Assembly: GCA_963826535.1 (NCBI GenBank)
Contig: CAWGXL010000011.1
Span: 728,581 to 792,580 of the forward strand
Direction: 5' to 3'
Source of the DNA: an uncultured bacterium
GTDB lineage: Bacteria > Patescibacteriota > Microgenomatia > Levybacterales > UBA12049
Length of the DNA: 64,000 bases
Under the pieces are notes generated by a model that saw only the letters and a list, made by a program, of their open reading frames with translations, did not search any database and was not told where the DNA came from. The number at the start of each line of letters is the position of its first letter. Within the stretch, counting starts at the first letter, position 1. Positions 12,871 to 51,862 of this stretch are shown piece by piece. The translations under genes and the position numbers were made by a program.

Positions 12871-13473
12871 ATGATTGATACGAAGAGACATTGGTTTTTG
12901 GGGTTGGAGAAAGTGGTTGGGCGGGCGTTTAATATTTTGCCTGTGACGCCGAATCAGTATACAGTGCTTTCAGGCATATTTGCTTTGGTGGGTTTGTATT
13001 TCATGATAACGCATAGTTTAATATGGGCGATAGTATTCTTTTTTATCGCAGCAGGTTTGGATTTTGTTGACGGAGCAGTTGCCAGAATCCGGCACGTTTC
13101 AACAAAGATGGGGGCATATCTTGATACTATTTTTGATAGATATGTTGAGGGAATTATTTTTTTTGGAATGATTTTTTTAAATCTTCCACAGGTTTTAATT
13201 CCAGGATATGCCTGGATTTTTTTGGCTGTTTTTGGATCTGTGATCACAACTTATGCGAAAGCGGCAGCAAAGGAGAAAGACTTGGTCAATCAGGAATTGA
13301 AGGGGGGACTTATGTCAAGAGGGGAGAGGTTTATTTTGATATTTTTGGCTTTAATAGCGGGGATTATTTATCCGGATTATTTATACATGACTTATTTGAT
13401 TATCATTATAGCAGTTTTGTCTAATATTACCGCGGTTCAGAGGATTTACTCCGCTATTAAAATAAATAAATAG
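12871..13473 (+). CDS. CDP-alcohol phosphatidyltransferase-family membrane enzyme (phosphatidylinositol-phosphate synthase-like)
   Basis: Motif DFVDGAVARIRHVSTKMGAYLDTIFDRY matches DG-x2-AR-x8-G-x3-D-x3-D. Multiple TM helices. Confidence 0.7.
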   Translation: MIDTKRHWFLGLEKVVGRAFNILPVTPNQYTVLSGIFALVGLYFMITHSLIWAIVFFFIAAGLDFVDGAVARIRHVSTKMGAYLDTIFDRYVEGIIFFGMIFLNLPQVLIPGYAWIFLAVFGSVITTYAKAAAKEKDLVNQELKGGLMSRGERFILIFLALIAGIIYPDYLYMTYLIIIIAVLSNITAVQRIYSAIKINK

Positions 13474-13491: not shown

Positions 13492-14391
13492 TTAATCAAA
13501 TGCTCTCAAGGCGTTTTCATGAAGCAGTCCATTCGTTGCTAAAAAATCATTCCTGGCATCCTTTCCTCCCGTCACAAAATCAAATTTACCACTTCCATCC
13601 ATTCTAGTCACTTGCCCACCTGCCTCCTGGACCAATAATAACCCCGGCAAATCCCAAGTTGGTTGTGCTCTGGCTACAGCTATATCAAACCTCCCGGCAG
13701 CTAAATTTGCCAATACATAAGAAGTAGATCCCGGAATATTTGTCCCTCTGCACCTTCTTGCCAATTTAGCAACATCCCGATCATAGTTCCAAAGTTCATC
13801 CTGTCGCACAGCAAGTGCTGCATCTTTAATATTATCTGTTTTTGTAACACCTAACATTCTCGTGCGCTTCTTACCATTCCATACTTCGTCAACATAAGCA
13901 CCCAGTCCTCTTTTTGCGTAATATAATTCCGGACCTTCAGTACCGATAGGCACATAAATCATTGAGAAATCAAAATTACCATTCTTTACATGGCCAATTG
14001 CCAAGGACCAATCCCTACCTCCTCTTGCGAAAACAAAAGTGCCATCAATTGCATCAATTACCCAATAATCCTTTCCAAGATCCTCTCCTCCTTTTTCCTC
14101 GCCCAATATCTTTGCCCCCGGAAATTTTTTTCTGATCAAATGGCTAATATCTGACTCTAATATGGGATCTGCAATAGTGACAATAGAATGGTGGTTTTCC
14201 TTGCTTTCAGCCTGGACACCTTTACGCCAAAAATCGCGAGCCTTTTCGCCGATTATTATTATTTCATCTCCTAAGCGATTCATTTCCTCAAACTTTCCTA
14301 AATTAGTCTCTACCGACTGTTGGCCAATAATTAAGATTTCTCTATTCATTTTCATAATCAGCCTATTATACACCGAATTAATTATTTTCAA
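13492..14391 (-). CDS. inositol monophosphatase family protein
   Basis: WVIDAIDGT (DP[IL]DGT) motif and a metal-binding GEE region. Confidence 0.75.
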   Translation of the reverse strand: MKIINSVYNRLIMKMNREILIIGQQSVETNLGKFEEMNRLGDEIIIIGEKARDFWRKGVQAESKENHHSIVTIADPILESDISHLIRKKFPGAKILGEEKGGEDLGKDYWVIDAIDGTFVFARGGRDWSLAIGHVKNGNFDFSMIYVPIGTEGPELYYAKRGLGAYVDEVWNGKKRTRMLGVTKTDNIKDAALAVRQDELWNYDRDVAKLARRCRGTNIPGSTSYVLANLAAGRFDIAVARAQPTWDLPGLLLVQEAGGQVTRMDGSGKFDFVTGGKDARNDFLATNGLLHENALRAFD

Positions 14392-19831: not shown

Positions 19832-21349
19832 ATGCTGAAGCTTTATAATTCACTTACACGCAGGATTGAAGAAATTAAAACTATTAATCCTCAGTTTGTT
19901 AATATGTATTCTTGCGGGCCGACGGTGTATCAGTTTGCGCATATTGGAAATTTCCGGGCTTTTTCTACGGCGGATATTTTGGTGAGAGTTTTGCGAGGAG
20001 TAGGAGTAGATTCAAAATTTGTGATGAATATTACGGATGTGGGGCATTTGACAAATGACCAAGTGGGTGGAGCGGATACAGGGGAGGATAAGATAGAGAA
20101 GACAGCAATGAGAGAGGGAAAGAGTGCGCGTGAGGTGGCGGATTTTTATACGGAGGCTTTTTTAAGGGATTATAATGCGCTGAATTTATCCGAGCCTGCA
20201 GTTTTTGCTAAGGCGACTGATCATATAAAGGAACAGATTGAACTTATCGCGCAGCTGACGAAAAAAGGGTTTACGTACAGAACTAATGACGGAGTTTATT
20301 TTGATACGGCAAAATTTCCAAACTACGGGAAAATGTCGTCGCTTGATCAGTTGAAGGAAGGCGCACGGGTAGAAGTAAATCCAGAGAAGCATAACCCGAG
20401 GGATTTTGCGTTGTGGAAGTTTAGTGGCTTAAAATCCCCCCAGCCCCCTTTAAGTAAAGGGGGAGCCGAAGACGGGGGATTTAGTCAGCGTCAAATGGAG
20501 TGGGATAGTCCTTGGGGAGTGGGTTTTCCGGGCTGGCATATTGAATGCAGCGCAATGAGTTTAAAATACTTGACGGAAGCATTTGACTCAAAAGGACGGC
20601 TTAGAATAGAGGGCAAAAAAAATTATACCATTGATATTCATACGGGCGGAGTGGATCATAAGGAGATTCATCATCCGAATGAAATTGCGCAGTCAGAAGG
20701 CGCGACAGGGAAGAAATTTGTTATGTATTGGATGCATACGGCTTTTATGATGGTGGCAGGTCAGAAGATGAGTAAGAGCCTTGGGAATATTTATACTCTC
20801 TATGATCTTGAGAAAGAAGGTTACGATTCCCTGGCATTGAGATACTTATATTTCCAAACACATTACCGGCAGGAGATGAATTTTACTTTTCCAGCATTGG
20901 ATGGTGCATCACAAGCGCTTAAAAAATTACGAATGGAAGTTGCAAAGTGGGGTTTACCAAATGGAAGGGTGCCGGAATTTGAAGAGCGATTTATTGAGGC
21001 GGTAAATGATGATTTGAATATGTCAAAGGCGTTGTCTATTGTTTGGGAGTTGGTGAAATCGGCGAATCCGCCAGCTGCGAAAGCAGGTAGTATTTTTAAA
21101 ATGGATGAAATATTGGGTTTTGATCTACAGAAGGGAAGCGCAGTTCTCGCGACAGAGAGGCAGATAGTTCCTCCTGAAGTGAAGGAACTTTTGCGGGAGA
21201 GAAATGTGCTGCGAAAGGCACGAAAGTTTAGTATGGCAGATCAGATGCGAAAGAAAATTAAGGATCTTGGATATGAGATTGAGGATACAAAGAAAGGGAC
21301 GAGGGTACGAATAATAAATTCAAAATCCAAAATTACAAATTCCAAATAA
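19832..21349 (+). CDS. cysS: cysteine--tRNA ligase
   Basis: HIGH-type AHIGNFRAF and KMSKSLGN motifs. Contains the in-frame palindromic insert at 20432-20482. The C-terminal tail is encoded by the AT-rich repeat. Confidence 0.9.
20432..20482. repeat. GC-rich nested-palindrome mini-element, in frame inside cysS
   Basis: AAATCCCCCCAGCCCCCTTTAAGTAAAGGGGGAGCCGAAGACGGGGGATTT. Encodes [17 protein letters not shown]. Confidence 0.75.
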
Positions 21350-39903: not shown

Positions 39904-41343
39904 ATGAAGTCTATACAATTTTTTGGGGGGTGTGGGATGGTGACGGGGTCGTGTTACTTGTTGACCGGTGACAATGGGGAACAGATCCTTGTGGATTTGG
40001 GATTATTTCAGGAGTCGGAGGAGCTGGGGAAGTTGAATTATGAAGCTCTGCCATTTGATATTTTAAAACTTTCCGGTGTGGTGTTGACACACGCACATTT
40101 GGATCACTGCGGGCGCTTGCCGCTTTTAACAAATGCTGGATACACGGGGAAAATTTATATGACGCAGGCGACGCGGATGTTGACATCCTTGGTACTCCTC
40201 GATGCTGCGAAGGTAGCAGCAGAGAATAACAGCCGCAGGCATGGTGATTCGGCGCAAATCCCCCCAGCCCCCTTTAATAAAGGGGGCAAGAGGGATTATG
40301 GTAGTGCGGCGGGTGAGGGATTATTATATTCGGAAGAAGATGTAGATAATTTGCTTTCTAAGATCGAGAATGTTGAATATGATCAAGCTTTTTCAATGGG
40401 AGAGTTTGCTATAGTTTTTCGGGATGCGGGGCATATATTGGGTTCTGCAATTGTTGAGATAACCGATGCTAAAGGTAAGAAAATTGTTTTCAGCGGGGAT
40501 TTAGGGAATACTCCGGAGGATATGATACGGCCGACTGAGCATATTGCCGCGGCTGATTTTGTTGTAATGGAGTCTACTTACGGGAATCGAATACACAAGG
40601 AGGAAAGTCCGACTGCGGTTTTACATGAGGAAATCAATGAGATTGAGAAAACGGGAGGCGTGCTTCTTATTCCTTCTTTTTCAATAGAGCGGGCGCAGGA
40701 ACTTCTGCATAGAATCAATCATCTAAAAAAAGACAATAAAATAGATGAGGGCACGAAAGTTTTTTTGGATAGTCCGATGGCAATCAGGGCGACTGAGATT
40801 TTCCGGCAGTCACCTGAGTTGTATAACCAGGAATTGACAAAAGAAAATAAAACAGATGACCCATTTGATTTTCCCGGCCTTAATATTACTTCGAGCGCTG
40901 AAGATAGTCGTGCAATTGTATTTAACCCCGGGCCGAAGGTGATTATCTCAGGTAGTGGAATGATGCACGGAGGCCGAGTGCTGCATCACGCAGTGAATTA
41001 TTTGCCTGATAACAAAACGCGTTTGCTTATCGTTGGGTATCAGGCTCCGGGTACGCTTGGGCGTCATCTTTTGGACGGTGCTAAGAGTGTTGTGATTTAT
41101 AATCAGGAGATTGCTGTAGCAGCTCATATTAGATCAGTTGAAGCGATGAGTTGTCATGCGGATCAGAAGAAGTTATTACAATGGCTCAGGCATATACATA
41201 GCGTGAAAAAAGTTTTTTTGACGCATGGGGAGGATGAGGCGAGGAATGTTTTGGGTGAGAAGATAAGGAGTGGGTTGGGGATTCAAGAAGTTGTGATGCC
41301 GAAGTTGGGGGAAAAATATAATCTTTTATATATTGGATTGTAA
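39904..41343 (+). CDS. MBL-fold beta-CASP ribonuclease (RNase J / CPSF-like)
   Basis: LTHAHLDHCGRLP (HxHxDH) motif and downstream beta-CASP His/Asp motifs. Contains the in-frame palindromic insert at 40256-40298. Confidence 0.75.
   Translation: MKSIQFFGGCGMVTGSCYLLTGDNGEQILVDLGLFQESEELGKLNYEALPFDILKLSGVVLTHAHLDHCGRLPLLTNAGYTGKIYMTQATRMLTSLVLLDAAKVAAENNSRRHGDSAQIPPAPFNKGGKRDYGSAAGEGLLYSEEDVDNLLSKIENVEYDQAFSMGEFAIVFRDAGHILGSAIVEITDAKGKKIVFSGDLGNTPEDMIRPTEHIAAADFVVMESTYGNRIHKEESPTAVLHEEINEIEKTGGVLLIPSFSIERAQELLHRINHLKKDNKIDEGTKVFLDSPMAIRATEIFRQSPELYNQELTKENKTDDPFDFPGLNITSSAEDSRAIVFNPGPKVIISGSGMMHGGRVLHHAVNYLPDNKTRLLIVGYQAPGTLGRHLLDGAKSVVIYNQEIAVAAHIRSVEAMSCHADQKKLLQWLRHIHSVKKVFLTHGEDEARNVLGEKIRSGLGIQEVVMPKLGEKYNLLYIGL
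40256..40298. repeat. GC-rich palindromic mini-element (3' arm degraded), in frame inside the beta-CASP RNase gene
   Basis: AAATCCCCCCAGCCCCCTTTAATAAAGGGGGCAAGAGGGATTA. Encodes QIPPAPFNKGGKRDYG. Confidence 0.7.
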
Positions 41344-41456
41344 ATTGTAAAGTTATTCAGCACCCCCAAATTTTAGTGATTAATTAACTTGTAACACGAG
41401 ATGTAGTCTTATAGTAATTTAGTAATTGCATAGTGATATTTTATTTGTTAAACTGC

Positions 41457-41577
41457 ATGAGTAAATTTATGAAACGAAATTATTCATTAGTCATGTATTG
41501 CTTCTTTTTTGCCCCTTAATTGGGCGGGAGAATTCGTGACTGAGTCACATTTTACCCCGCTGAGCGGGGTTTTTTTG
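41457..41577 (+). promoter_or_regulatory. candidate leader-peptide attenuator
   Basis: 20-aa ORF MSKFMKRNYSLVMYCFFFAP (41457-41519) whose stop TAA abuts TTGGGCGGGAG. Perfect hairpin GTGAC-TGA-GTCAC. Intrinsic terminator CCCCGC-TGA-GCGGGG plus T7, ending 56 nt before the ATP-grasp gene. Confidence 0.5.
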
Positions 41578-41632
41578 TATTTAAATCCAATAACGGATCT
41601 AAATTTTATAACTGAATAATTTCGTAATATCT

Positions 41633-43096
41633 ATGAACGTAGAGAGACAATCTTTGTATGTTAGTGATGGGGAACGACGAGCTGTGGGCGTTGGTTTTCA
41701 CAATGCTGCTGATGTTTTGTGGGCATCGGATCGTGCTGTACAGGAAGCTGTAAAAAAACACTATCAACAACGGGGAGGGCATATACCCCTTGATAATGTT
41801 GATAAGACTTTTATGTTAGTGCAAGAACATGACGATCCTACTACTTCACAATTCCATTATCTATCTGATATAACCGGCAGAAGAATTGAGCCTAAAACAA
41901 TAGAAGAAATTAAGCAAGAATCCAGAAAAACTTTGTCTCAAAAACCGCTTGTAGTTCCTTATATAAAGCTTCCTCTAACCGAGACATACTTAGAGCGTGA
42001 ACTTGGGGCAGATGTTTGGGGTTTACCAGGGACTGTGGTGTCAGTTTTAAAAAATAAAGCTGAATTTCATGAAAGGATACTGAGGGCTGAAATAGACGGA
42101 CTTCATGTCCCGGATTTTATAGTTACAGATGTAGATGATTTAACTATCAATTCAGAAGAATTTTACAGAACACATGTGAAAGATTTATACAAAAGATTCA
42201 AGATGGACGGGTATACTCATGGTCTAGTCTTGCGGCCGGCTGAGTCTGACGGTAACTTTGGTGCAGGTGTTGTGCGAGAGGAAAATGGACATGTTCTTTT
42301 TATGCCTGATGGCAAGATGGAAGGAGCATCCAGGCATCCAACATTTAATAGCGCATTAGCAAGAAGCCAAGAATATATGAGAAGTACAATGAATAGCGTA
42401 AAAGAAAAGAGGGTGGTTGTTAGTAGGTTGATTGATTTAGCTGATTCTCCGGGGATGTCTGTGGCTGTACTGGATGGTCAGGTAATATCGTTGGGCTGGA
42501 ATGGACAGATAATAAAAGATGGTACGGCATGTGTTGGGACAAGTACATATAGACCTAAAGATGAATATTTACAACAAATACAAGAGGAGAATGAAGAAAA
42601 AACAGCGGGAGCATTCTCGGTGCTATTGAGTCAACTGACAAAGGGGCAAGGGATAGACTTGCAGACGGTACGGGGGATTGCAAATATTGATATCATGATT
42701 CCGGGAGAGCGAGAAAGAGAACTTCAGAGAAAACGTGGTGGAGACCCGCATTTATATGTTGCTGAATCAAATCCACGTTATACCAATATGACTGATGGGG
42801 TTTTGACCGCGGTTGCAGCGCAAAGATTACCGCAAACTGTACGTTCAATGCGGGTAGTGACTGCTGCAGGAATAGTATCGGAAGATAAGTATGCTCTTCC
42901 GGCTGGTGTTGATCCAAAAGCAGTGCGTGACGAAATTTATAAAAGTGATCTTAAATTAAAAGAAGAAGGTACGAGAGTGATAGCACGTATGACCGTTGCC
43001 CCTATGGGTGTTATATTTCTTGGTAATACTGAACTTGCCAGGCGCGAGCTTACGAATGTAGTGCATAAGCTCGCTGGGAAAAAAAGTGTAATTTAA
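41633..43096 (+). CDS. ATP-grasp-fold ligase-like protein (paralog 1)
   Basis: NKAEFHERILRAEIDGLHVPDF (DK..K..L...G.P.P-like). Gly-rich loop RPAESDGNFGAGVV. C-terminal YVAESNPR (E-x-N-x-R). Confidence 0.5.
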   Translation: MNVERQSLYVSDGERRAVGVGFHNAADVLWASDRAVQEAVKKHYQQRGGHIPLDNVDKTFMLVQEHDDPTTSQFHYLSDITGRRIEPKTIEEIKQESRKTLSQKPLVVPYIKLPLTETYLERELGADVWGLPGTVVSVLKNKAEFHERILRAEIDGLHVPDFIVTDVDDLTINSEEFYRTHVKDLYKRFKMDGYTHGLVLRPAESDGNFGAGVVREENGHVLFMPDGKMEGASRHPTFNSALARSQEYMRSTMNSVKEKRVVVSRLIDLADSPGMSVAVLDGQVISLGWNGQIIKDGTACVGTSTYRPKDEYLQQIQEENEEKTAGAFSVLLSQLTKGQGIDLQTVRGIANIDIMIPGERERELQRKRGGDPHLYVAESNPRYTNMTDGVLTAVAAQRLPQTVRSMRVVTAAGIVSEDKYALPAGVDPKAVRDEIYKSDLKLKEEGTRVIARMTVAPMGVIFLGNTELARRELTNVVHKLAGKKSVI

Positions 43097-43144
43097 TTAT
43101 TGAACAATGGATTTGTATTTGTTATACTGATTAAGTTGATTTAT

Positions 43145-43258
43145 ATGAAATACAGCAATAGATTAGTTAAGTTTTTCCTCCTTCTTAACACCCACTAATT
43201 GGGCGGGAGGATTCGTGATTGAATCAAATATACCCGCTAACTGAGCGGGTTTTTTTGT
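43145..43258 (+). promoter_or_regulatory. candidate leader-peptide attenuator, second copy
   Basis: 17-aa ORF MKYSNRLVKFFLLLNTH (43145-43198) with the same TAATTGGGCGGGAG junction. Hairpin TGATT-G-AATCA shows compensatory changes relative to the first copy. Terminator ACCCGC...GCGGGT plus T8. Confidence 0.5.
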
Positions 43259-43261
43259 GTT

Positions 43262-44719
43262 ATGAATAAAGAGAATGGAAACCAATCATTATTTGTTCCT
43301 ATAGGCGAACTGCAAGTTGGTGTTGGTTATCATAATGTTCATCAAGTTGTTGGAGCATCCGATTTTGTACAAAAAAAAATAAAAGAAAAGTATCAGATGC
43401 GTTGTGGACATGTGCCGCTTGATGGTTTCGAACGTACTCATGTTTTGGTAGGCGAACATACGGATGCAACTACTTCACAATTAGATTATCTCTCCGATAT
43501 TTTCGGTCGAAAAATTGCACCTAAGACAGTGGGGGAAATTAAACAGGAATCTAGTAAAGATGGTGGTCAGAAGCCATTGGTTGTTCCATATATTAGACTT
43601 CCTGAAGTAGATGTATCTATGCAGGAAAAACTCGGTGCGAAAGTGTGGGGACTGCCTGGAGGAATGGTGATTGCATTAAAAAATAAAGTAGAATTTCACA
43701 GGATGATTGAAAAAGCTCAAATAGATGATCTTCATGTGCCAGATTTTACTATTGCAAGAGTAGATGATTTGACTGCTAGTGCAGAAGAATTTCGATTGAG
43801 GCATGTAGAAGGTTTATACAAAAGATATGATATGAGTGATTATAACCGCGGACTTATGGTGCGAGCTGCCGAATCTGATGGCAACTATGGCGCAGCTATT
43901 GTTAAGGAGGTTAATGGAAATAAAATTCTTATGCCTGACGGAAAAATGGATAAATTTCAGAAACATGATACTTGGAAAGGGGCATTAGAAGCTTGTCAGG
44001 TATATATTAAGGAAGCGATGAATACGGCAAAAGAGGATAGGGTAGTTATTAGCAGGCTTATTGATCTTGCTGATTCTCCGGGTATGTCTGCTGCTATTTT
44101 AGACGGTCAGATGCTGTCTTTAGGATGGAATGGGCAATTATATAAAGATGGGACAGCATGTGAAGGTACAGGCACATATAAACCAAAAAATGAATATTTA
44201 AAACGTACACAAGTTTTGTATGAAGAAAAGGTAGCAGGGGCATTCGAAAAATTGTTGAAACAACTGGCAGATGAAAAAGGAATAGACTTCAGCGTAATAA
44301 GAGGATTTGTGAATATAGATATAATGATTCCAGGGCATAAGGAAAGAGAGCTTCAAAGAAGGAGGGATGGAGAAACATACTTTTATCTTGCCGAATCAAA
44401 TCCACGTATTACTCATTTTACTGATGCAGTTTTGACAGGGGTTGCGGCCCAGAGGCAAAGGCAAACTGTAAATTCTATGCGTGAAATAATAGCTAAGGAT
44501 TTACAAGCAGAAGACAGTTTTACACTACCCGAATATGTTGATCCTAGAAATGTTCGTGATATGGTTTATCAAAGAGACCTTGATTTAAGATATGGTGGTA
44601 CAAGAATAATTACACGTATGTTGGGAATCCACAATGTGGGTGTCATATTCATGGGTGATACGGCTCGGGGCAGACGAGAACTTACAAATATTGTTGATAA
44701 ACTAGCGGTGAAAAAGTGA
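43262..44719 (+). CDS. ATP-grasp-fold ligase-like protein (paralog 2)
   Basis: Collinear with the 41633 ORF along its full length. NKVEFHRMIEKAQIDDLHVPDF, VRAAESDGNYGAAIV, YLAESNPR. Confidence 0.5.
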   Translation: MNKENGNQSLFVPIGELQVGVGYHNVHQVVGASDFVQKKIKEKYQMRCGHVPLDGFERTHVLVGEHTDATTSQLDYLSDIFGRKIAPKTVGEIKQESSKDGGQKPLVVPYIRLPEVDVSMQEKLGAKVWGLPGGMVIALKNKVEFHRMIEKAQIDDLHVPDFTIARVDDLTASAEEFRLRHVEGLYKRYDMSDYNRGLMVRAAESDGNYGAAIVKEVNGNKILMPDGKMDKFQKHDTWKGALEACQVYIKEAMNTAKEDRVVISRLIDLADSPGMSAAILDGQMLSLGWNGQLYKDGTACEGTGTYKPKNEYLKRTQVLYEEKVAGAFEKLLKQLADEKGIDFSVIRGFVNIDIMIPGHKERELQRRRDGETYFYLAESNPRITHFTDAVLTGVAAQRQRQTVNSMREIIAKDLQAEDSFTLPEYVDPRNVRDMVYQRDLDLRYGGTRIITRMLGIHNVGVIFMGDTARGRRELTNIVDKLAVKK

Positions 44720-44731
44720 TATAAAAAATAT

Positions 44732-45802
44732 ATGCAGCAAAATATTCTAAAATTGGCTAGAAGTTTAATTTCCATTCCGTCTGTTCATGAGAATTCTCAG
44801 GGGCTAAAAGTTATTCTTGAGGTTGCAAAAAAAGAATTGCGGGGATTTCATATTGGTGAATTTGAGAGTGGCGGGGTTACTAGTATACTTTTCTCTAATA
44901 CTACAAAGCCCACTAAGCAATTTAGAATTATTCTTAATGCTCATCTCGATGTTGTTCCGGGTACTGCAAAGCAGTATTCTCCGGAAGTGAAAGATGGTAA
45001 GTTGCATGGAAGGGGCGCATATGATATGAAAGCTGCGGCTGCGGTTATGATCTTACTTTTTAAGGAAATCGGCAAAAAAGTAGATTTTCCTCTTGGATTG
45101 CAACTTACAACTGATGAAGAGGTTGGGGGAGCAAACGGTACAGGATATCAAATAAAAAAGGGCTTACGTACTGATTTTGTCATAACCGGTGAAGGAACGA
45201 GTTTTCGTATTATTAATGAAGCAAAAGCCAGGATAATTCTAAAGCTCACGGCCAATGGAAAAACATCTCATGCCGCATACCCCTGGCTTGGAGAAAATGC
45301 TATTTGGAAGATGACACAGGCTATAAACAGATTATATAATGTATATCCACTACCGAGTTCTGAATGGAATGGAACAACGTTTAATATTACGACAATCAGT
45401 ACTGATAATCATACTCTTAATAAAACTCCGGATTATTGCGAAGCTACGGTCAATATACGTGTAATACCGCAGGAAAAGGATACAATTGTAAGCGATATAA
45501 AAAAAATAGTGTCCGAAGATATTACTGTAGAGCAAACTGAGGATTCATATTTGCATCAGACCAATCCTGACAGCCCTTATATTAAAAAATTGCAAGCTGT
45601 AACGAAAGAAATACTGGGCATCGATGCAGTTTTGAGCCGGGCTCATGGTGGATCAGACGCATGTCATTATACAGCTGTGGGGTGTGAAGGTATTGAGTTC
45701 GGGCCTATTGGCGGCAATCATCATGCGGATGAAGAATGGGTTGATGTCGAGAGCTTGGTAGATTACTATAATATTCTAAAGAAATTTCTTTTGAGGTGTT
45801 AA
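44732..45802 (+). CDS. M20-family metallopeptidase/deacylase (ArgE/DapE-like)
   Basis: AHLDVVPG and GRGAYDMKAAAAVM motifs. Confidence 0.75.
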   Translation: MQQNILKLARSLISIPSVHENSQGLKVILEVAKKELRGFHIGEFESGGVTSILFSNTTKPTKQFRIILNAHLDVVPGTAKQYSPEVKDGKLHGRGAYDMKAAAAVMILLFKEIGKKVDFPLGLQLTTDEEVGGANGTGYQIKKGLRTDFVITGEGTSFRIINEAKARIILKLTANGKTSHAAYPWLGENAIWKMTQAINRLYNVYPLPSSEWNGTTFNITTISTDNHTLNKTPDYCEATVNIRVIPQEKDTIVSDIKKIVSEDITVEQTEDSYLHQTNPDSPYIKKLQAVTKEILGIDAVLSRAHGGSDACHYTAVGCEGIEFGPIGGNHHADEEWVDVESLVDYYNILKKFLLRC

Positions 45803-46218
45803 AATGTGATTTTTAAAATAGGGTATTGACAAGCAGGGGTTTTTTGATTAACAATATAATAAGTGAAAAGAACTAAAGTAAAAAAAGTTAAGAGTTTGAG
45901 GACTGTTAAGGGCAGTAAACAGTTTACAGAGAAACATAAGCATTTCGAACATTTAATTGTAATATTTGCAGGTGTGGTAGTAGCTTTCTTCCTGGTGCTT
46001 ACTAAATCTTCACAGTAAAATAAAATTTATACTTTGCTTCTTGGTGTATTATTTCCTTATTTATGCTAATATGACATTGATACAAGTTCCGCATTTGGCA
46101 CATTGCGGCGTCAGGTTCTGCGGTGCTCGACAGCGTACGCTTTAGTACGCTTTACTCCGCTCCTCGACCCTTCCTTGCACTGTACTCAAATGCGAAACTT
46201 GTATATATAAAAAGGTGT

Positions 46219-47584
46219 ATGGCGATTCAGACGGTTAATCCTACTACAGGCAAATTAATAAAACAATTCAAACCTACAACGGCTTCGGAAGTCGAAAGGC
46301 GTCTTTCTCGGGCGCAAAAGGCATTTCAGTCGTGGAGTAAGCTGACGGTAGCGGCGCGGATTAAATATGTTCAACGGCTTTCCGAGTATTTGGAAAAGGA
46401 AAAGCAGGTGTTGGGGAGATTGGTGACTTTGGAGATGGGACGGGTGTATGCGGATTCTGTGGCTGAGATTTCAAAGAGCGCTAGTGTATGTAAGTACTAT
46501 ATTCAAAACGGTGAGAAATTTTTGCAAGAGCAGCATGTGCCTACGGAGGCTGCAAAAAGTTATATCGAGTACGCGCCGCTTGGAATAATATTGGGCATTA
46601 TGCCATGGAATTTTCCTTTTTATCTGGTTTTTCGTCCGCTTATTCCGGCTCTGGTTGCGGGTAATGTCTTTGTGCTTAAGCATGCGTCGAATGTTCCTCA
46701 ATGTGCTCTGGCTATTGAGGAAATGTTTTCGGAAGACCGGGTTTCCGGCGGGAGTGTTTACTAATCTTTTTATTGAGGGCGGAAATGTCAGCCATGTGAT
46801 TGCTGATGACCGGATCGCAGCGGTAACTCTTACAGGAAGTGAGGCTGCGGGGGCTAAAGTCGCGGGGCTCGCGGGGGCGCATTTGAAAAAGACTGTTTTG
46901 GAGTTGGGCGGATCGGATGCATTTATAGTTTTGGAAGACGCAAATATTGAGGAGGCAGTTACACAATCTGTAAAAGGCAGACTGATGAATGCCGGGCAGG
47001 CTTGTAATTCACCTAAACGGATTATTTTGACGCATAAAATTGCAGATCGATTTAAAGATTTATTTGTGGCGAAGTCGCGAAAGCTTAAGGTAGGGGATCC
47101 GATGGATCCTGGGACAGATGTTTGTCCAATGGCGCGTGAGGATTTGATTGAGGTTTTGGATGAACAAGTGTCAGGTTCTATAAAGCGCGGGGCGAAGCTT
47201 TTGCAAGGAGGTAGAAGGATCAAGAGAGCAGGATTTTTTTATGAAGTAACAGTTGTAGATAATGTGAAAAAGGGTATGCCGCTATTCGATGAAGAGGTTT
47301 TCGGGCCGGTTGTTGTGTTTATTACAGTTAAATCAGACGCAGAGGCAATACAAGTGGCGAATGATACGCATTTGGGGTTGAGCGCGAGTGTTTGGACAGG
47401 TGATATTAAGCGGGCGCATCATTTTATAGATAATTTGCATGTGGGTAATGTGTTTGTAAATCAAGTTGTGCGGTCAGATCCAAGGCTTCCTTATGGTGGA
47501 GTTAAAAAGTCAGGTTATGGGAGGGAATTGGGAGAGCACGGGATACGGGAGTTTACGAATATAAAGACGGTTGTTATTAAGTGA
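46219..47584 (+). pseudogene. NAD(P)-dependent aldehyde dehydrogenase disrupted by a frameshift near 46731-46745
   Basis: Two overlapping ORFs, 46123-46764 and 46655-47584. The ALDH motifs continue in the +1 frame (FPAGVFTNLFIEGG, ELGGSDAFIV, catalytic-Cys region). An apparent single-base insertion lies at GAAGACCGGG. Confidence 0.6.
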
Positions 47585-48580: not shown

Positions 48581-49489
48581 ATGACCTTTCTTGAAAAATA
48601 TGAGTTTCTGAAGAAATCTGTTCCTGTTAAGGCTTTACGGAATATTGAACCTGAAGGATGTGAATATAGTGAATTTTTGGATTACTGTAAAAATTGCATT
48701 TACTGTTTCGAGTCAGCAAAGTTAATAGATAGTTTGTATACAGTACTTGGCATTTGGGGAACAAAACTTGTAGATTGTACTTCAGTAACAGAATCAGAGA
48801 AATCTTATTATTGTATTGATTCTAATAAATGCTACAACAGCACATATTTAATGGACTGCAATAATTGTACTGACTGCCATTTTTCAGCATTTTTAAACAA
48901 TTGTACAGATTGCTTCAGATGCGTCGCCATTACTCATAAAAAATATTGTATTTTCAACAAACAGTACACAAAACAAGAATATTTTAAAAAAATTGAAGAA
49001 TTAAAAAAAGAGAATCCTGAAAAGTTACTCAATAAAATGATTGATTTAAAAAAACAGATACCTCATCCGGCAAGCCAACAATTCAGCAGTGAGAATTGCC
49101 TGTACGGGAATTACATATATAATTCTAAAAACAGTTACTGGTGTTTTAATAGTTATTACATTGAAAATTCAGGCTATAATTTCATCAGCGGAAATGTTAA
49201 GAATTCTTGGGATTTATATTTTTCCGGAAGCTCTGACAAGTCTGTTGTGACTGAGCGCGGTTATGAATTATATGCTTCCGGCAGGACGATTTATAATTGC
49301 GCATTCTTATCTGACAGTATTTATTGCACTGATTCTTTTTATAGTGATAATCTTATAAATTGCTCCTACTGCTTTGGGTGTGTGGGACTAAAAGGTAAAA
49401 AATACTGCATCCTCAATAATCAACTCACAAAAGACCAATATGATAAAGCTGTGAAAGAGATCAGAAAAGAGCTTGGGTGGAAATATTAG
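48581..49489 (+). CDS. Cys-rich repeat protein, paralog family (MTFLEKYE N-terminus)
   Basis: About 9% Cys. Two internal modules of about 130 aa each end in C-x2-C-F-G-C-V-G-L-x2-KKYCI-x-N-x-Q-x-TK. The PHPASQQF motif is shared. No signal peptide. Confidence 0.55.
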   Translation: MTFLEKYEFLKKSVPVKALRNIEPEGCEYSEFLDYCKNCIYCFESAKLIDSLYTVLGIWGTKLVDCTSVTESEKSYYCIDSNKCYNSTYLMDCNNCTDCHFSAFLNNCTDCFRCVAITHKKYCIFNKQYTKQEYFKKIEELKKENPEKLLNKMIDLKKQIPHPASQQFSSENCLYGNYIYNSKNSYWCFNSYYIENSGYNFISGNVKNSWDLYFSGSSDKSVVTERGYELYASGRTIYNCAFLSDSIYCTDSFYSDNLINCSYCFGCVGLKGKKYCILNNQLTKDQYDKAVKEIRKELGWKY

Positions 49490-50037: not shown

Positions 50038-50946
50038 ATGACCTTTCTTGAAAAATATGAACTGCTGAAAAAATCTGTTCCTGTTCCGGCGTTGGCACTT
50101 GGGCCTTTTACGGTTGAGACGGTGTACGCTAATTTTGTCTATAGAAGTAAAAATTGTTACTTTTGCTTTGACGGATTCAAGTTGGAAGACAGCATGTATA
50201 CGACGATGGGGGTTTGGGGGAATAAGCTTGTAGATTGTGAAGCAGTTACAGAATCAGAAAAATGTTATAAATGTATAGATAGTAATAAATGTCATAGTTG
50301 TACATACTTAGTAGAAAGTAATGAATGCAGCGATTCCCACTACTGCGCTTTTTTAAATTCATGCACTAATTGTTTCGGTTGCGTTGCTCTCACCCACAAG
50401 AAATATTGTATTTTTAACAAACAGTATACTAAAGTAGAATATTTTAAAAAGGTGGAAGTATTAAATAAGGAAAAACCGGAGAAAATACTTGAGCAAATGT
50501 TTGATCTAAAACAGAAGTTACCTCATCCTGCAAGTCAGCAATTCAATAGCGAAAATAGTCCATATGGCAACTATATTTATAATTCGAAAAACAGCTACTG
50601 GTGTTTTAATAGCTACTATTGTGAAAATTCCGGTTATAATTTTGCAGCTGTAGCAACTAAGAATTGTTGGGATGTGGTTTTTGCTGGTGGAGATCAAGCA
50701 TTAAAAAAAGTTTCTGAGCGATGTTATCAGCTTATGGACTCAATTAATTGTTATGATTGTGCGTATTTACAAAATAGTTCAGAGTCTACGAATTGTTATT
50801 ATGGCGAAATGCTTAGAAATTGTTCAGATTGTTTCGGTTGTGTGGCGTTAACCAATAAAAAATATTGCATCTTGAATATTCAACTCACAAAAAACCAATA
50901 CGAAAAAGCTATTAAAGATATCAAAAAAGAGTTAGGATGGAATTAG
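50038..50946 (+). CDS. Cys-rich repeat protein, paralog family
   Basis: N-terminus MTFLEKYELLKKSVPVPA. Same Cys framework. Confidence 0.55.
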   Translation: MTFLEKYELLKKSVPVPALALGPFTVETVYANFVYRSKNCYFCFDGFKLEDSMYTTMGVWGNKLVDCEAVTESEKCYKCIDSNKCHSCTYLVESNECSDSHYCAFLNSCTNCFGCVALTHKKYCIFNKQYTKVEYFKKVEVLNKEKPEKILEQMFDLKQKLPHPASQQFNSENSPYGNYIYNSKNSYWCFNSYYCENSGYNFAAVATKNCWDVVFAGGDQALKKVSERCYQLMDSINCYDCAYLQNSSESTNCYYGEMLRNCSDCFGCVALTNKKYCILNIQLTKNQYEKAIKDIKKELGWN

Positions 50947-50953
50947 TAGAATT

Positions 50954-51862
50954 ATGACCTTTCTTGAAAAATATGAACTTCTGAAGAAATCTGTTCCGGT
51001 TCCGGCTGTTTTTTCAACTAATTCGTTTGATAGTGAATTTGTTGATACAGTCGTTGACTGTAAGAATTGTTATTATTGTTTCGATACTTACTTTCTTGAA
51101 AATGCTATGTATACAAGTTTTGGAGCATATAATAAAATGCTTGTAGATTGTCATGGAATGGTTAATTCAGAAAAATGTTATGAAAGCTTCGATGGCACAA
51201 AATGCTATAATTCTACCTTCTTAATGGATAGCAATAGTAGTAATGACTGTCATTATTCATCCTATCTCACAACATGCAGCAATTGCTTCGGCTGTGTAGG
51301 TCTGACTCACAAAAAATATTGTATTTTTAATAAGCAATACACAAAGGAAGAATATATTAAGAGAGAAGCGGACTTAAAAAAAGAAGGACCTGAAAAGATG
51401 CTTAAGCAAATGTTTGAATTAAAACAAAAGATACCACATCCTGCAAGTCAGCAATTCAATAGCGAAAATTGTCCATATGGCAATTACATTTTTGATTCAA
51501 AGAATTGTTATTGGGGTTTTTTGGTAAATTATTCTGAAAATTCCGGATATTTATATAATAGTGGTACGATGAAAAATTGTTGGGATATGTTTTTTTCAGG
51601 GGGAAATTTTAACCAAAAATTTTATGCTGAGCGATGTTATGAACAGATGAATACCGGTTTTTGCTACAACTGCGCATTTCTTGCCAGCAGTCAAAACTGT
51701 TCAAATTGTTATTATGGTGAAATGCTTAGAAATTGCTCGGACTGCTTCGGTTGCGTGGGGTTATCAAATAAAAAATATTGTATATTAAATAACCAATTAA
51801 CTAAAGACCAATACGAAAAGGCTGTTAAAGAGATCAGAATAGAGCTTGGGTGGGGGTTTTAA
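50954..51862 (+). CDS. Cys-rich repeat protein, paralog family
   Basis: N-terminus MTFLEKYELLKKSVPVPAV. Same Cys framework. Confidence 0.55.
   Translation: MTFLEKYELLKKSVPVPAVFSTNSFDSEFVDTVVDCKNCYYCFDTYFLENAMYTSFGAYNKMLVDCHGMVNSEKCYESFDGTKCYNSTFLMDSNSSNDCHYSSYLTTCSNCFGCVGLTHKKYCIFNKQYTKEEYIKREADLKKEGPEKMLKQMFELKQKIPHPASQQFNSENCPYGNYIFDSKNCYWGFLVNYSENSGYLYNSGTMKNCWDMFFSGGNFNQKFYAERCYEQMNTGFCYNCAFLASSQNCSNCYYGEMLRNCSDCFGCVGLSNKKYCILNNQLTKDQYEKAVKEIRIELGWGF

Follow-up and report, generated by a model that had tools for sequence, protein, structure and literature searches.

Why do two neighboring, paralogous ATP-grasp genes each follow a minute open reading frame (ORF) and a transcription terminator? 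The window (the whole stretch of DNA analyzed, 64 kb long) holds two homologous units of ~125 nt, at 41426-41576 and 43100-43256, each with a sigma-70-like promoter site, a 16- or 17-codon ORF whose stop codon is closely followed by a G-rich box, and a GC hairpin with U7. A preliminary description of this DNA had proposed two homologous units of leader ORF, hairpin and terminator ahead of the ATP-grasp genes, and the proposal holds: from the -10 box to the U-tract the units are 71% identical in pairwise alignment, and both window copies fold more stably than shuffled sequences (z = -3.6 and -2.2). A covariance-model scan of the window returned these two copies and no others, and they carry the only strong hairpins with T6 tracts found outside genes on either strand of the 64 kb. 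Sites matching GGCGGG[AG]G at 411, 32177, 46747 and 52966 of the window were considered and are not leader copies. The parts are as follows.

41426..41454, + strand: promoter-like site of leader 1, TTGCAT, 17-bp spacer, TAAACT (41449-41454); 7/12 matches, a consensus match only
41457..41519, + strand: longer version of leader ORF 1, in which an in-frame ATG at 41457 adds MSKF, 20 codons
41469..41519, + strand: leader ORF 1, MKRNYSLVMYCFFFAP + TAA, 16 codons; start ATGAAR conserved in homologs
41487..41543, + strand: P1 (regions 1:2) of copy 1, in which codons 7-16 pair with GGGCGGGAGAAUUCGUGACUGA, with the stop codon in the apical loop (from MFE folds and covariation)
41502-41510, + strand: Phe codons UUC UUU UUU of leader ORF 1
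41522..41528, + strand: GGGCGGG box (region 2) of copy 1, with ORF GCCC/CUUCU or the terminator 5' arm CCCGCU as alternative partners
41536..41548, + strand: small hairpin GUGAC-UGA-GUCAC of copy 1, the apical part of a putative antiterminator
41554..41576, + strand: intrinsic terminator 1, ACCCCGC-UGA-GCGGGGU + U7
41633..43096, + strand: ATP-grasp-fold protein, paralog 1, 487 aa (AlphaFold, Foldseek)
43100..43128, + strand: promoter-like site of leader 2, TTGAAC, 17-bp spacer, TATACT, with TG upstream; 9/12 matches, consensus only
43145..43198, + strand: leader ORF 2, MKYSNRLVKFFLLLNTH + TAA, 17 codons
43161..43225, + strand: P1 (regions 1:2) of copy 2, with UCCUCCU/GGGAGGA and CCCA/UGGG pairings (from the fold)
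43172-43186, + strand: codons UUU UUC CUC CUU CUU of leader ORF 2
43201..43207, + strand: GGGCGGG box (region 2) of copy 2
43216..43226, + strand: small hairpin UGAU-UGA-AUCA of copy 2 (from the sequence and its alignment with copy 1)
43232..43256, + strand: intrinsic terminator 2, ACCCGCU-AACUG-AGCGGGU + U7, 5 nt from the next start codon
43262..44719, + strand: ATP-grasp-fold protein, paralog 2, 485 aa, 58% identical to paralog 1
44732..45802, + strand: M20 (ArgE/DapE-type) deacylase

The segment TAATTGGGCGGGAG follows the leader stop codon in both copies. Where copy 1 has an A in region 2, copy 2 has a G, and a U-to-C change in the codon tract offsets this substitution; the 5' arm of the small hairpin in copy 1 doubles as the outer 3' arm of P1. 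Several details of the preliminary description need adjustment. A 20-residue ORF is indeed present in copy 1, but the conserved start is 41469; the ATG at 41457 is probably not transcribed, because it lies 2 nt after the -10 box TAAACT. The peptide pattern MK-x4-LV-x2-FF is shared, with a variable spacer, x(1,3), in place of x2. The small hairpins do differ by one compensated pair (C-G to U-A), although the version given for copy 2, TGATT-G-AATCA, has an impossible 1-nt loop and the real element is UGAU-UGA-AUCA. Both U-tracts are T7, as described for copy 1 but not for copy 2 (T8), and the distance of 50-56 nt from terminator to start codon applies to copy 1 (56 nt) and not to copy 2 (5 nt). 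Hexamers resembling TATAAC and TAATAT occur within the 56-nt gap.

What would such an arrangement accomplish? Both units are likely to be transcription attenuators of the leader-peptide type, mediated by the ribosome, and probably sense the supply of hydrophobic aminoacyl-tRNAs. Transcripts from a sigma-70-type promoter would have ~0-10 nt of 5' UTR and lack a Shine-Dalgarno sequence, as is usual for gene starts in this genome, and the ORF of 15-19 codons would be translated while the RNA emerges. Region 1 (ORF codons -10 to -1) and region 2 (the G-rich box and the sequence that follows) can form the long P1, whose loop contains or adjoins the stop codon. A ribosome that reaches the stop codon would cover the GGGCGGG box, which starts 2-6 nt past the stop, and upon its release P1 would re-form. 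Either way, the terminator 5' arm ACCCGC would be left free, the terminator would fold and RNA polymerase would halt on the U7 tract, which precedes the enzyme's AUG by 0-12 nt, or by 56 nt in copy 1. A ribosome stalled on the hydrophobic codons -9 to -3 (Phe-Phe-Phe in copy 1, Phe-Phe-Leu-Leu-Leu in copy 2) would instead occupy region 1 and free region 2, which could then pair with the terminator 5' arm, the small hairpin forming the cap; no terminator would form and the ATP-grasp gene would be transcribed. What is sensed would be a deficit of tRNA charged with Phe, Leu, Ile, Val or Met.

Is the element found elsewhere? A covariance model built from 6 copies brought 11 further copies on 9 other low-GC contigs, for a total of 13 distinct copies on 10 contigs; these share kinship, and the counts are therefore not independent events. 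Every additional copy lies directly upstream of a gene from the same cluster, and a divergent 14th copy was found on a Candidatus Amesbacteria contig. The exact pattern GGGCGGGRG-N(4,5)-GTGAYTGA-N(8,9)-TACCC had no match in metagenome contigs because it was too strict, the copies found later differing in that segment. All 13 copies have a terminator with a 6-8-bp GC stem followed by U5-U8. Predicted promoters at the homologous position are TTGACA-17-TATAAT-like (9-12 of 12 matches), except in L058, where the promoter lies further upstream; the promoter-like site stands 6-18 nt before the leader ORF (~42 nt in L058). From the end of the U-tract to the AUG there are 0-7 nt in 10 of the 11 other copies and 12 nt in L143.

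The RNA structure itself was assessed in two ways. A MAFFT alignment of 12 leaders analyzed with RNAalifold recovered the terminator and nothing else, and for this reason a covariance-model alignment and alignment-free duplex tests were used. In MFE folds of all copies, P1 is a long hairpin in which the hydrophobic codons pair with the G-rich box and the stop codon sits in or beside the loop. In the covariance-model alignment, which is biased toward the modeled structure, 90.6% of the cells of P1 and the terminator are paired, as against 76% in shuffles and ~48% in slid controls; changes on both sides occur in 17 of 25 pairs, a number reached by 0 of 500 shuffles, and the main helix of P1 has double changes in 12 of its 14 pairs. 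Without any alignment, region 1 binds its own partner better than foreign ones (-19.8 versus -15.0 kcal/mol, p < 5e-5), and the terminator arms likewise prefer their own partners (p < 5e-5). P1 and the terminator thus covary.

The antiterminator stands on a different footing. The G-rich box is also able to pair with the terminator 5' arm, and in all 12 copies folded it lies 2-12 nt after the stop codon. When the nascent RNA is folded over the segment between the stop codon and the terminator loop, region 2 pairs with this arm in 11 of the 12 copies, at -11 to -18 kcal/mol. In the two window copies the proposed pairing folds at -16.3 kcal/mol in copy 1, more stable than 98% of region-2 shuffles, and -14.1 kcal/mol in copy 2. 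The corresponding fold is weak in L145A (-7.2 kcal/mol, not above shuffles), and those of L146 and L145B do not exceed composition-matched shuffles. The basal helix of the putative antiterminator is 82% paired and invariant, with zero compensatory changes, and the test of own versus foreign partners is not significant (p = 0.10). The G-rich antiterminator originally proposed is conserved in its pairing and its position relative to the stop codon but shows no covariation. The small hairpin is best read as its apical part; in the alternative 1:2 structure, ORF codons become the partner of this small hairpin's 5' arm. A ribosome footprint model, with footprint sizes assumed from E. coli, predicts that 3-7 bases of the terminator arm are sequestered with the A site at codons -9 to -3 and 0-4 with it at codon -1 or the stop. 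A his/phe/leu-type attenuator, in which the G-rich segment and the 3' terminator arm are rivals for CCCGC, was the mechanism first suggested, and it fits every test run.

What do the leader codons encode? An ATG-initiated ORF of 15-19 codons is kept in frame in all 13 copies, and its hydrophobic codons are in phase. At codons -9 to -3 of 12 copies, U occupies codon position 2 in 72 of 84 cases, as compared with 58% and 24% when the other two frames are read (p < 5e-5 by nucleotide shuffling); with the 13th copy, 78 of 91 codons have U at this position, encoding Phe, Leu, Ile, Val or Met. The 84 residues include 19 Leu, 19 Ile, 18 Phe, 8 Val and 8 Met. The mix changes from copy to copy (Phe; Phe/Leu; Leu/Ile; Ile/Val; Tyr/Met), no amino acid being common to all. 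What is sensed would not be Phe and Leu alone, as first suggested, but a variable set of Phe, Leu, Ile, Val and Met; that no copy-wide run for a single amino acid exists counts against the attenuator reading. Only 9 of 54 genes in the window have a Shine-Dalgarno sequence, and many have TATAAT 5-10 nt before their ATG; given this style of initiation, translation of a leader ORF lacking a Shine-Dalgarno sequence is to be expected. The conserved GUG of CGUGAYUGA might open a second ORF, an idea that was rejected because the stop position of this ORF differs between copies.

Could the same RNA switch respond to something other than amino-acid shortage? The ribosome might be stalled by a drug or metabolite acting on it or on the nascent hydrophobic peptide, or the switch might follow the overall rate of translation. 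Antibiotic-inducible leader peptides of resistance genes work by stalling of this kind, and inducible erm-type attenuators have short hydrophobic leaders. No amino acid dominates the regulatory codons, and the ATP-grasp and M20 genes under control are uncharacterized, both of which would suit such a signal. However, the leader peptides differ widely in sequence and retain no conserved core or arrest motif, merely hydrophobicity and U at codon position 2, and the positions at which stalling would release region 2 are exactly those that the hydrophobic codons take up, as expected for the sensing of hungry codons. Moreover, at L143 the gene order is ATP-grasp, leader, enolase of the NSAR/OSBS family (N-succinylamino acid racemase or o-succinylbenzoate synthase; 331 bits against TIGR01928, cut-off 200.65) and M20 deacylase, and the last two are the enzyme pair of a pathway giving hydrophobic L-amino acids. 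We regard a signal other than starvation as unlikely.

A second possibility is that the ORFs encode functional hydrophobic peptides, either substrates or precursors of the ATP-grasp enzymes (RiPP-like or PGM1/PGM2-like) or small membrane peptides, with the terminator setting the ratio of peptide to enzyme mRNA. Codon-level constraint on the ORF is clear, and the structure of the enzyme lends itself to this idea. Searches of the ATP-grasp proteins against Pfam, NCBIfam and PDB sequence profiles found no match, and the AlphaFold model of paralog 1 (pLDDT 93, pTM 0.91) matches many ATP-grasp enzymes in Foldseek with probability 1.0, the best including the peptide ligases 8ynd, BesA 8yi6 and PGM1 3wvq (E 1e-14 to 1e-12). 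PGM1 acts on a ribosomal peptide. The likeness is at the level of fold, with a TM score of about 0.6 and 10-14% identity, and PurK and biotin carboxylase reach a similar level; the label "ATP-grasp" for the paralogs holds at fold level in these models. Distribution argues against a peptide substrate. Among 110 unique upstream regions of ATP-grasp homologs, 9 have the terminator and all 9 have the leader ORF, whereas ~100 homologous loci (Ktedonobacteria, Chloroflexota, soil) have neither; a terminator retained without the ORF was looked for among these ~110 loci, and the two were present together or both absent. Paralogs lacking a leader occur within leader-bearing contigs themselves (the first copy of L002, L143, and the second copies of L058, L056 and L004), and no leader precedes the soil homologs L141 and L142, which have Shine-Dalgarno-like sites. 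Conversely, two leaders precede non-homologous genes, encoding a 479-aa protein of unknown function (L047) and the NSAR/OSBS-like enolase (L143). (Gene calling can extend an ATP-grasp ORF into the leader: protein P0123 was called at 516 aa, with its start inside the L047 leader.) The peptides, 15-19 aa long and without a conserved core, are nearly devoid of the Asp and Glu needed for graspetide cross-links with Ser/Thr or Lys: a single Asp occurs in 2 of 12 and Glu in none. A functional peptide would also leave the pairing of the ORF 3' half with region 2 and the adjacency of the stop codon unexplained. Two specific roles were rejected as well, that of a LysW-like amino-group carrier for want of an acidic C-terminus, and that of a type I toxin-like membrane peptide since 7-9 hydrophobic residues in a row are too few to cross a membrane. 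The precursor or substrate peptide, which the preliminary description had offered as its alternative, is thus unsupported, and we give a functional peptide little chance.

Might the leader not be translated at all, the ORF being incidental to a riboswitch, or to a target of an RNA-binding protein or tRNA, in which a ligand on P1 controls the terminator? P1 is long and covarying and includes conserved G-rich and GUGAY segments, and covariation offers no proof of the antiterminator; to this extent an untranslated structured leader would do. It would not account for the strong 3-nt periodicity in phase with the conserved ATG, nor for a reading frame open in 12 of 12 copies when the other two are open in 1 and 6. 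The stop codon may be TAA, TAG or TGA depending on the copy and yet always adjoins the G-rich box, so that three different stop codons occupy one structural position, and the polar N-terminal half of the ORF, which has no RNA structure, nonetheless keeps its ATGAAR start. No Rfam family, riboswitches included, matched at gathering level anywhere in the window. At E <= 10 the matches, all of them below threshold, are to leaders (Trp, Phe, Thr, Leu) and sRNAs, and the terminator accounts for each; against thresholds of 41-55, Phe_leader RF01859, Leu_leader RF00512, Trp_leader RF00513 and Thr_leader RF00506 score 16-21 bits. We consider an untranslated leader very improbable. Least credible of all is that the hairpin and U-tract merely end an independent small-protein gene, the ATP-grasp genes being transcribed constitutively from promoters of their own: the 56-nt gap of copy 1, with its TATAAC- and TAATAT-like hexamers, would allow it, but the AUG follows the end of the U-tract by 0-12 nt in 12 of 13 copies, which leaves no space for another promoter, and the upstream genes end without comparable terminators.

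If the units are attenuators sensitive to hydrophobic aminoacyl-tRNAs, what do they regulate? In every leader-bearing locus an M20 gene lies 3' of the ATP-grasp gene or genes, and the regulated genes fall outside the known amino-acid biosynthesis genes, a point against the attenuator reading. Leader codons of attenuators normally name the product of the pathway they control, and those described here therefore provide a functional hint, toward hydrophobic amino acids, for a widespread orphan ATP-grasp/M20 pair. One might speculate further, though we think it rather doubtful, that the leaders are multivalent sensors of hydrophobic aminoacyl-tRNAs in amino-acid-auxotrophic Patescibacteria-like bacteria and switch on an undescribed, ATP-dependent salvage of hydrophobic L-amino acids, comprising N-acylation by the ATP-grasp enzyme, optional NSAR-type racemization and deacylation by M20, with each leader tuned to the substrate of its own enzyme (Phe; Phe/Leu; Leu/Ile; Ile/Val; Tyr/Met). 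Were this true, leader codons would predict the substrate of an orphan enzyme family.

To our knowledge, bacteria of the candidate-phyla-radiation type cannot be cultured alone and almost nothing is known of their gene regulation; we found no paper on leader-peptide attenuation in them, nor on such attenuation upstream of ATP-grasp genes. If the attenuator reading is true, the units would constitute a documented RNA-level switch in this group. They would also represent classic attenuation with nearly leaderless leader ORFs that lack Shine-Dalgarno sequences, in which the sequence flanking the next start codon on its 5' side would be the terminator U-tract. As the preliminary description foresaw, standard annotation misses the element, because it is not in Rfam. 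It would be a new example of a known attenuator type, one that no Rfam family matches above threshold.

How does it compare with its closest counterparts? The E. coli pheA and pheST leaders (RF01859) share with it consecutive Phe codons toward the end of a short ORF, a stop codon beside region 2, alternative hairpins (1:2, a putative 2:3 and 3:4) and an intrinsic terminator ahead of the structural gene. The units score 19.5 and 18.7 bits against this family (gathering 55), which gives neither sequence nor model membership, and they differ in having no Shine-Dalgarno sequence, almost no 5' UTR and a mixed run of Phe, Leu, Ile, Val and Met; their genes are uncharacterized ATP-grasp ligases and not pheA or pheST, and the host is Patescibacteria-like rather than one of the Enterobacteria. 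Its placement is based on named CysRS relatives, since an exact search with the window's own protein matched no record and protein clusters carried no names. The archetypal trp leader (RF00513) has the geometry proposed here, with regulatory codons a few codons before the stop, the stop codon at the 1:2 boundary and a region 2 complementary to regions 1 and 3, but its codons and genes are other ones and the best score is 21 bits (gathering 41). The multivalent ilvGMEDA and ilvBN attenuators of Enterobacteria have leader peptides rich in several hydrophobic amino acids, and starvation for any one of Ile, Leu or Val relieves termination. In contrast to these, the mix described here includes Phe and Met and varies by copy, the peptides have 15-19 residues rather than about 32, and the downstream genes are not those of branched-chain biosynthesis. 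Outside the Proteobacteria, leader peptides upstream of ilvB in Actinobacteria have been predicted by comparative genomics (PMC1262725).

The PGM1/PGM2 (pheganomycin) and graspetide (microviridin-type) systems also place a small ORF beside an ATP-grasp ligase, and PGM1 (3wvq) is a structural neighbor of paralog 1. Unlike theirs, the peptide here is not co-inherited with the enzyme family and has neither a conserved core nor conserved acidic residues, and its ORF overlaps a covarying RNA switch that also precedes unrelated genes. The resemblance to the NSAR/M20 pathway lies in the L143 locus, with its NSAR/OSBS enolase and M20 deacylase; the window has no NSAR gene. This likeness concerns what the regulated genes may do and has no bearing on the cis-element. 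There is no GNAT at these loci, and by analogy with that pathway it is the ATP-grasp ligase that would have to acylate.

Why does each of two paralogous ATP-grasp genes have its own short ORF, hairpin and terminator? The best-supported explanation, which we consider probable, is that both leader units are leader-peptide transcription attenuators. This his/phe/leu-type reading, advanced in the preliminary description, draws its support from conservation of the leader frame, the position of its stop codon, and covariation of P1, a hairpin between ORF codons (region 1) and a G-rich box with its downstream sequence (region 2). Reading of positions 41000-45200 bore out the two small ORFs, their shared string TAATTGGGCGGGAG, which contains the TAA stop of both, and, after each, a short hairpin followed by a GC-rich hairpin with a T7 run. 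The features are as follows.

41457/41469-41519, forward strand: leader ORF 1, read from the sequence
41554-41576, forward strand: copy 1 terminator, ACCCCGC-TGA-GCGGGGT-T7, from sequence and consensus scan
41633-43096, forward strand: ATP-grasp-fold paralog 1, from AlphaFold and structure matches
43145-43198, forward strand: leader ORF 2, read from the sequence
43232-43256, forward strand: copy 2 terminator, ACCCGCT-AACTG-AGCGGGT-T7, from sequence and consensus scan
43262-44719, forward strand: ATP-grasp-fold paralog 2, 58% identical to paralog 1
44732-45802, forward strand: M20 ArgE/DapE-type deacylase, directly after paralog 2

Several details required revision. Copy 1 likely starts at 41469 (peptide MKRNYSLVMYCFFFAP) rather than at 41457 as first proposed, because the latter ATG sits 2 nt past the -10 hexamer. 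The small hairpin of copy 2, described with a 1-nt loop, is UGAU-UGA-AUCA, and its U-tract reads T7 instead of T8; the T7 of copy 1 stands. A distance of 50-56 nt from terminator to ATP-grasp AUG holds for copy 1 (56 nt) and fails for copy 2 (5 nt). The aligned copies are 71% identical from the -10-like hexamer through the U-tract, and both have more stable folds than their dinucleotide shuffles (z = -3.6 and -2.2). By consensus scan, copy 2 has a promoter-like site, TTGAAC-17-TATACT with an upstream TG. Across both strands of the 64-kb window, no other strong hairpin-plus-T6 terminator lies outside a gene, and gene ends lack canonical intrinsic terminators. The sole further hairpin-plus-T6 site in 1-64000, at 13217, is intragenic.

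ATP-grasp homologs are numerous, and the closest loci carry the leader unit directly upstream of the gene. The covariance-model search suggested in the preliminary description, with a model built from six copies and run on approximately 150 fetched loci, identified 13 distinct leader copies in 10 contigs.

Leader peptides of the 13 copies, with codon emphasis (win1 and win2, the window's copies 1 and 2; L-handles, homologous loci from other contigs)
win1: MKRNYSLVMYCFFFAP; Phe
win2: MKYSNRLVKFFLLLNTH; Phe/Leu
L001: MKQSCTSIMFFFLIPV; Phe
L002: MKQNNIFVMFFLITH; Phe/Leu
L053: MRQVNMLVISFFLITH; Phe/Leu
L058: MKQIDQKFILILLITR; Leu/Ile
L047A: MFLLRNYYMMTYFASR; Tyr/Met
L047B: MFNTTALILGLLITH; Leu/Ile
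L145A: MKQHTAFSIILIIDL; Ile
L145B: MLAVYKCMVVLFQIAP
L146: MNYQGRSIMLVLFLINP; Leu
L143: MIQSCKIIMLVIVTP; Ile/Val
L147: MMKKLNKSVTLSLILFINP

A divergent fourteenth leader (L041, 3790-3960, Candidatus Amesbacteria contig MEXP01000002.1) scores only 19.5 bits with the covariance model. Here TTGACA-17-TATAAT is followed, 7 nt past the -10, by the ATG of a leaderless 26-codon ORF (MSRVLSLINLIVLLKGGEANVGEAPR; tail VLSLINLIVLL) that runs through the G-rich region. Its terminator, CCUCCC-ACAA-GGGAGG-U7, abuts the AUG of an ATP-grasp homolog, and GUGGGAG is complementary to the terminator's CUCCCAC.

The element occurs in none of approximately 100 homologous loci from Ktedonobacteria, Chloroflexota and soil. 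Paralogs without a leader are also found inside leader-bearing contigs (the first paralog of L002, the ATP-grasp gene of L143, and the second paralogs of L058, L056 and L004). Only nine of 110 unique homolog upstream regions have a terminator ahead of the start codon; all nine are low-GC and all contain a small ORF, so that the terminator without a small ORF, named in the preliminary description as evidence against attenuation, was encountered in 0/9. Two leaders precede genes not homologous to ATP-grasp: a 479-aa protein in L047 and, in L143, an enolase-superfamily gene scoring 331 bits on TIGR01928 (OSBS/NSAR group; cut-off 200.65).

Some observations concern the fetched loci themselves. At L050 3850-3930, a 26-codon ORF (MVQLNSVEQDYIQRYYPLINIIIYFI) beginning 7 nt past TATATAAT precedes a remote ATP-grasp homolog (29% identity); its TGA overlaps the gene's ATG (ATGA) and this interval has no terminator. 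The arrangement may be a version of the leader acting on translation, not transcription, or a product of chance. In L047 (3938-5488) and database entries P0123, P0124-P0126 and P0149, called ATP-grasp ORFs extend into leader and terminator, giving products of 516-535 aa versus approximately 495 aa from the AUG right after the U-tract; gene callers thus produce spurious N-terminal extensions in this clade's entries. The MAGs with the closest homologs (L003, L004, L047, L050) are labelled 'uncultured Gammaproteobacteria', which may be wrong. The best named relatives of the window's CysRS (19832-21349) are from Patescibacteria, Levybacteria and Saccharimonadales (58-63% identity), and the loci share trigger factor, DUF5660, ThrRS and IF3 neighbourhoods. 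Taken with the related leader of the Amesbacteria locus and a source contig of 894 kb, these relatives make a candidate-phyla-radiation host probable.

Is the small ORF translated? All 13 copies begin at a homologous ATG and stay open for 15-19 codons, ended by any of three different stop codons just ahead of the G-rich box; of the two remaining frames, one is open in just 1/12 copies and the other in 6/12. At codons -9 to -3 from the stop, U occupies position 2 in 72 of 84 codons (12 copies), versus 58% and 24% at the corresponding position of the other frames, a count matched by 0 of 20,000 within-segment nucleotide shuffles; adding L147 gives 78/91. The 84 residues include 19 Leu, 19 Ile, 18 Phe, 8 Val and 8 Met. 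The peptides have a polar N-terminal part (Lys, Asn, Gln, Ser, Arg), and the final two codons, the 5' side of the P1 apical stem, are mostly non-hydrophobic (AP, TH, PV, TR, SR, NP, TP). A promoter-like site (7-12/12 consensus matches, 16-18-bp spacer) ends 6-16 nt upstream of the ATG in 11 of the 12 copies scored; in L058, TTGACA-17-TATAAT lies approximately 42 nt upstream. None of the scored copies has a Shine-Dalgarno sequence. SD-less starts are this genome's rule, with an SD-like motif in only 9 of 54 large window ORFs. In many window ORFs a TATAAT-like hexamer, often preceded by TG, stops 5-10 nt short of the ATG (for example 663, 18925, 19832, 33530, 35399 and 52663, forward; 13492-14355 and 4070-6100, reverse). 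This pattern points to leaderless or near-leaderless mRNAs as the usual form here. Region 2 (43201-43211 and homologous boxes) itself contains an SD-like GGAGG or GGGAG, in a genome barely using Shine-Dalgarno, with a conserved GUG 5-6 nt beyond; an ORF opened by that GUG was rejected, its stop position not being conserved between copies.

The minimum-free-energy fold of every copy is the long P1 hairpin, then the terminator. In P1, ORF codons approximately -10 to -1 pair with the G-rich box and with the CGUGAY downstream of it, placing the stop codon in or adjoining the loop. In the 12-copy model-based alignment, 90.6% of cells are paired, versus 76% for shuffles and approximately 48% for slid partners, and 17 of 25 pairs change on both sides; 0/500 shuffles attain these values. 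Since such an alignment is biased towards the modelled structure, we also compared, without an alignment, how strongly each region 1 pairs with its own and with foreign region 2 (duplex energy -19.8 versus -15.0 kcal/mol, permutation p < 5e-5); an 8-copy version was run as well. Terminator arms likewise prefer their own partner (p < 5e-5). Where copies 1 and 2 differ by A-to-G in GGGAG(A/G)A, the codon tract carries a matching U-to-C change.

The region 2 box (GGGCGGG, or variants GUGGCG and GGGAGGGG) complements the 5' arm of the terminator, CCCGCY; counted from the first stop-codon base, it starts at 2-6 nt and is over by +12 in each of the 12 folded copies. From this conserved complementarity and geometry we infer an antiterminator. 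The preliminary description had proposed one and called for its folding energies: in nascent RNA from stop codon to terminator loop, the pairing forms in 11/12 copies at -11 to -18 kcal/mol, capped by the small hairpin. The case is weakest on covariation: the basal helix (82% paired) is essentially invariant, with no compensated changes in the alignment and p = 0.10 for own versus foreign partners. Own-terminator pairing is best only in L058 and L047B, whose region 2 diverges most; the antiterminator of L145A is weak, and those of L146 and L145B do not beat composition-matched shuffles. The small hairpin's 5' arm, GUGAC, doubles as the outer 3' arm of P1, so a switch trades each half of P1 for a half of the putative antiterminator. 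In a simple footprint model, where bases up to A-site +12 are unavailable, region 2 sequesters 3-7 terminator-arm bases with the A site at codons -9 to -3 and 0-4 at codon -1 or the stop, which places the switch point just past the hydrophobic codons.

A ribosome stalled at these codons would leave region 2 free, the antiterminator would form, and the enzyme gene would be transcribed; a ribosome at the stop codon would mask region 2, or P1 would re-form after release, and the terminator would act. The U-tract ends 0-12 nt from the enzyme AUG in 12 of 13 copies, and the enzyme genes are therefore transcribable only by read-through. The switch probably senses how much charged tRNA is available for Phe, Leu, Ile, Val and Met. 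The same switch with another stall trigger, be it a drug, a metabolite or the pace of translation as a whole, is the alternative that survives best, and it is unlikely. That the ORFs encode functional or substrate peptides, as the preliminary description had alternatively suggested, is improbable: co-occurrence with the ATP-grasp family is patchy, leaders also precede unrelated genes, the peptides have no conserved core and almost no acidic residues (a single Asp in 2 of 12, Glu in none), and the RNA overlap would be left unexplained. An untranslated riboswitch-like RNA, disfavoured by the codon periodicity, deserves less credence again. Least credible is the plain terminator of a separate small gene, a reading against which the lack of room for a second promoter speaks.

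What would the attenuators regulate? Neither ATP-grasp-fold paralog matches Pfam or NCBIfam. The AlphaFold model (pLDDT 93, high confidence) matches the ligases 8ynd, BesA 8yi6 and PGM1 3wvq (E 1e-14 to 1e-12, TM approximately 0.6, 10-14% identity). An M20 gene comes after the ATP-grasp gene(s) in every leader locus, and L143 1032-5028 reads ATP-grasp homolog, leader, NSAR/OSBS-type enolase, M20 deacylase. Speculatively, by analogy, an ATP-grasp carboxylate-amine ligase could replace GNAT in an NSAR/M20-type pathway; if so, the leader codons would name the amino acids that this pathway yields. No NSAR gene lies in the window itself. Further downstream, an aldehyde dehydrogenase (46123-47584) consists of two overlapping ORFs, 46123-46764 and 46655-47584, spanning Pfam Aldedh positions 8-178 and 169-461; this split is a frameshift, pseudogene or assembly error, and the homolog is unbroken (454 aa) in L002 and L058. 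Three tandem 302-codon ORFs (48581-49489, 50038-50946, 50954-51862) are probably paralogs because all begin ATGACCTTTCTT; the first has no NCBIfam match.

Our literature search returned no paper joining leader peptides or attenuation with ATP-grasp genes or candidate-phyla-radiation bacteria. Outside Proteobacteria, leader-peptide attenuators had already been predicted, for example in Actinobacteria (PMC1262725). The window element would work like the pheA, pheST, leu, ilv and trp leaders but is not a member of the Rfam leader families (16-21 bits versus thresholds of 41-55). What sets it apart is a leader ORF that is SD-less and near-leaderless, a mixed set of hydrophobic codons, a U-tract abutting the next start codon, and regulated genes uncharacterised in function.
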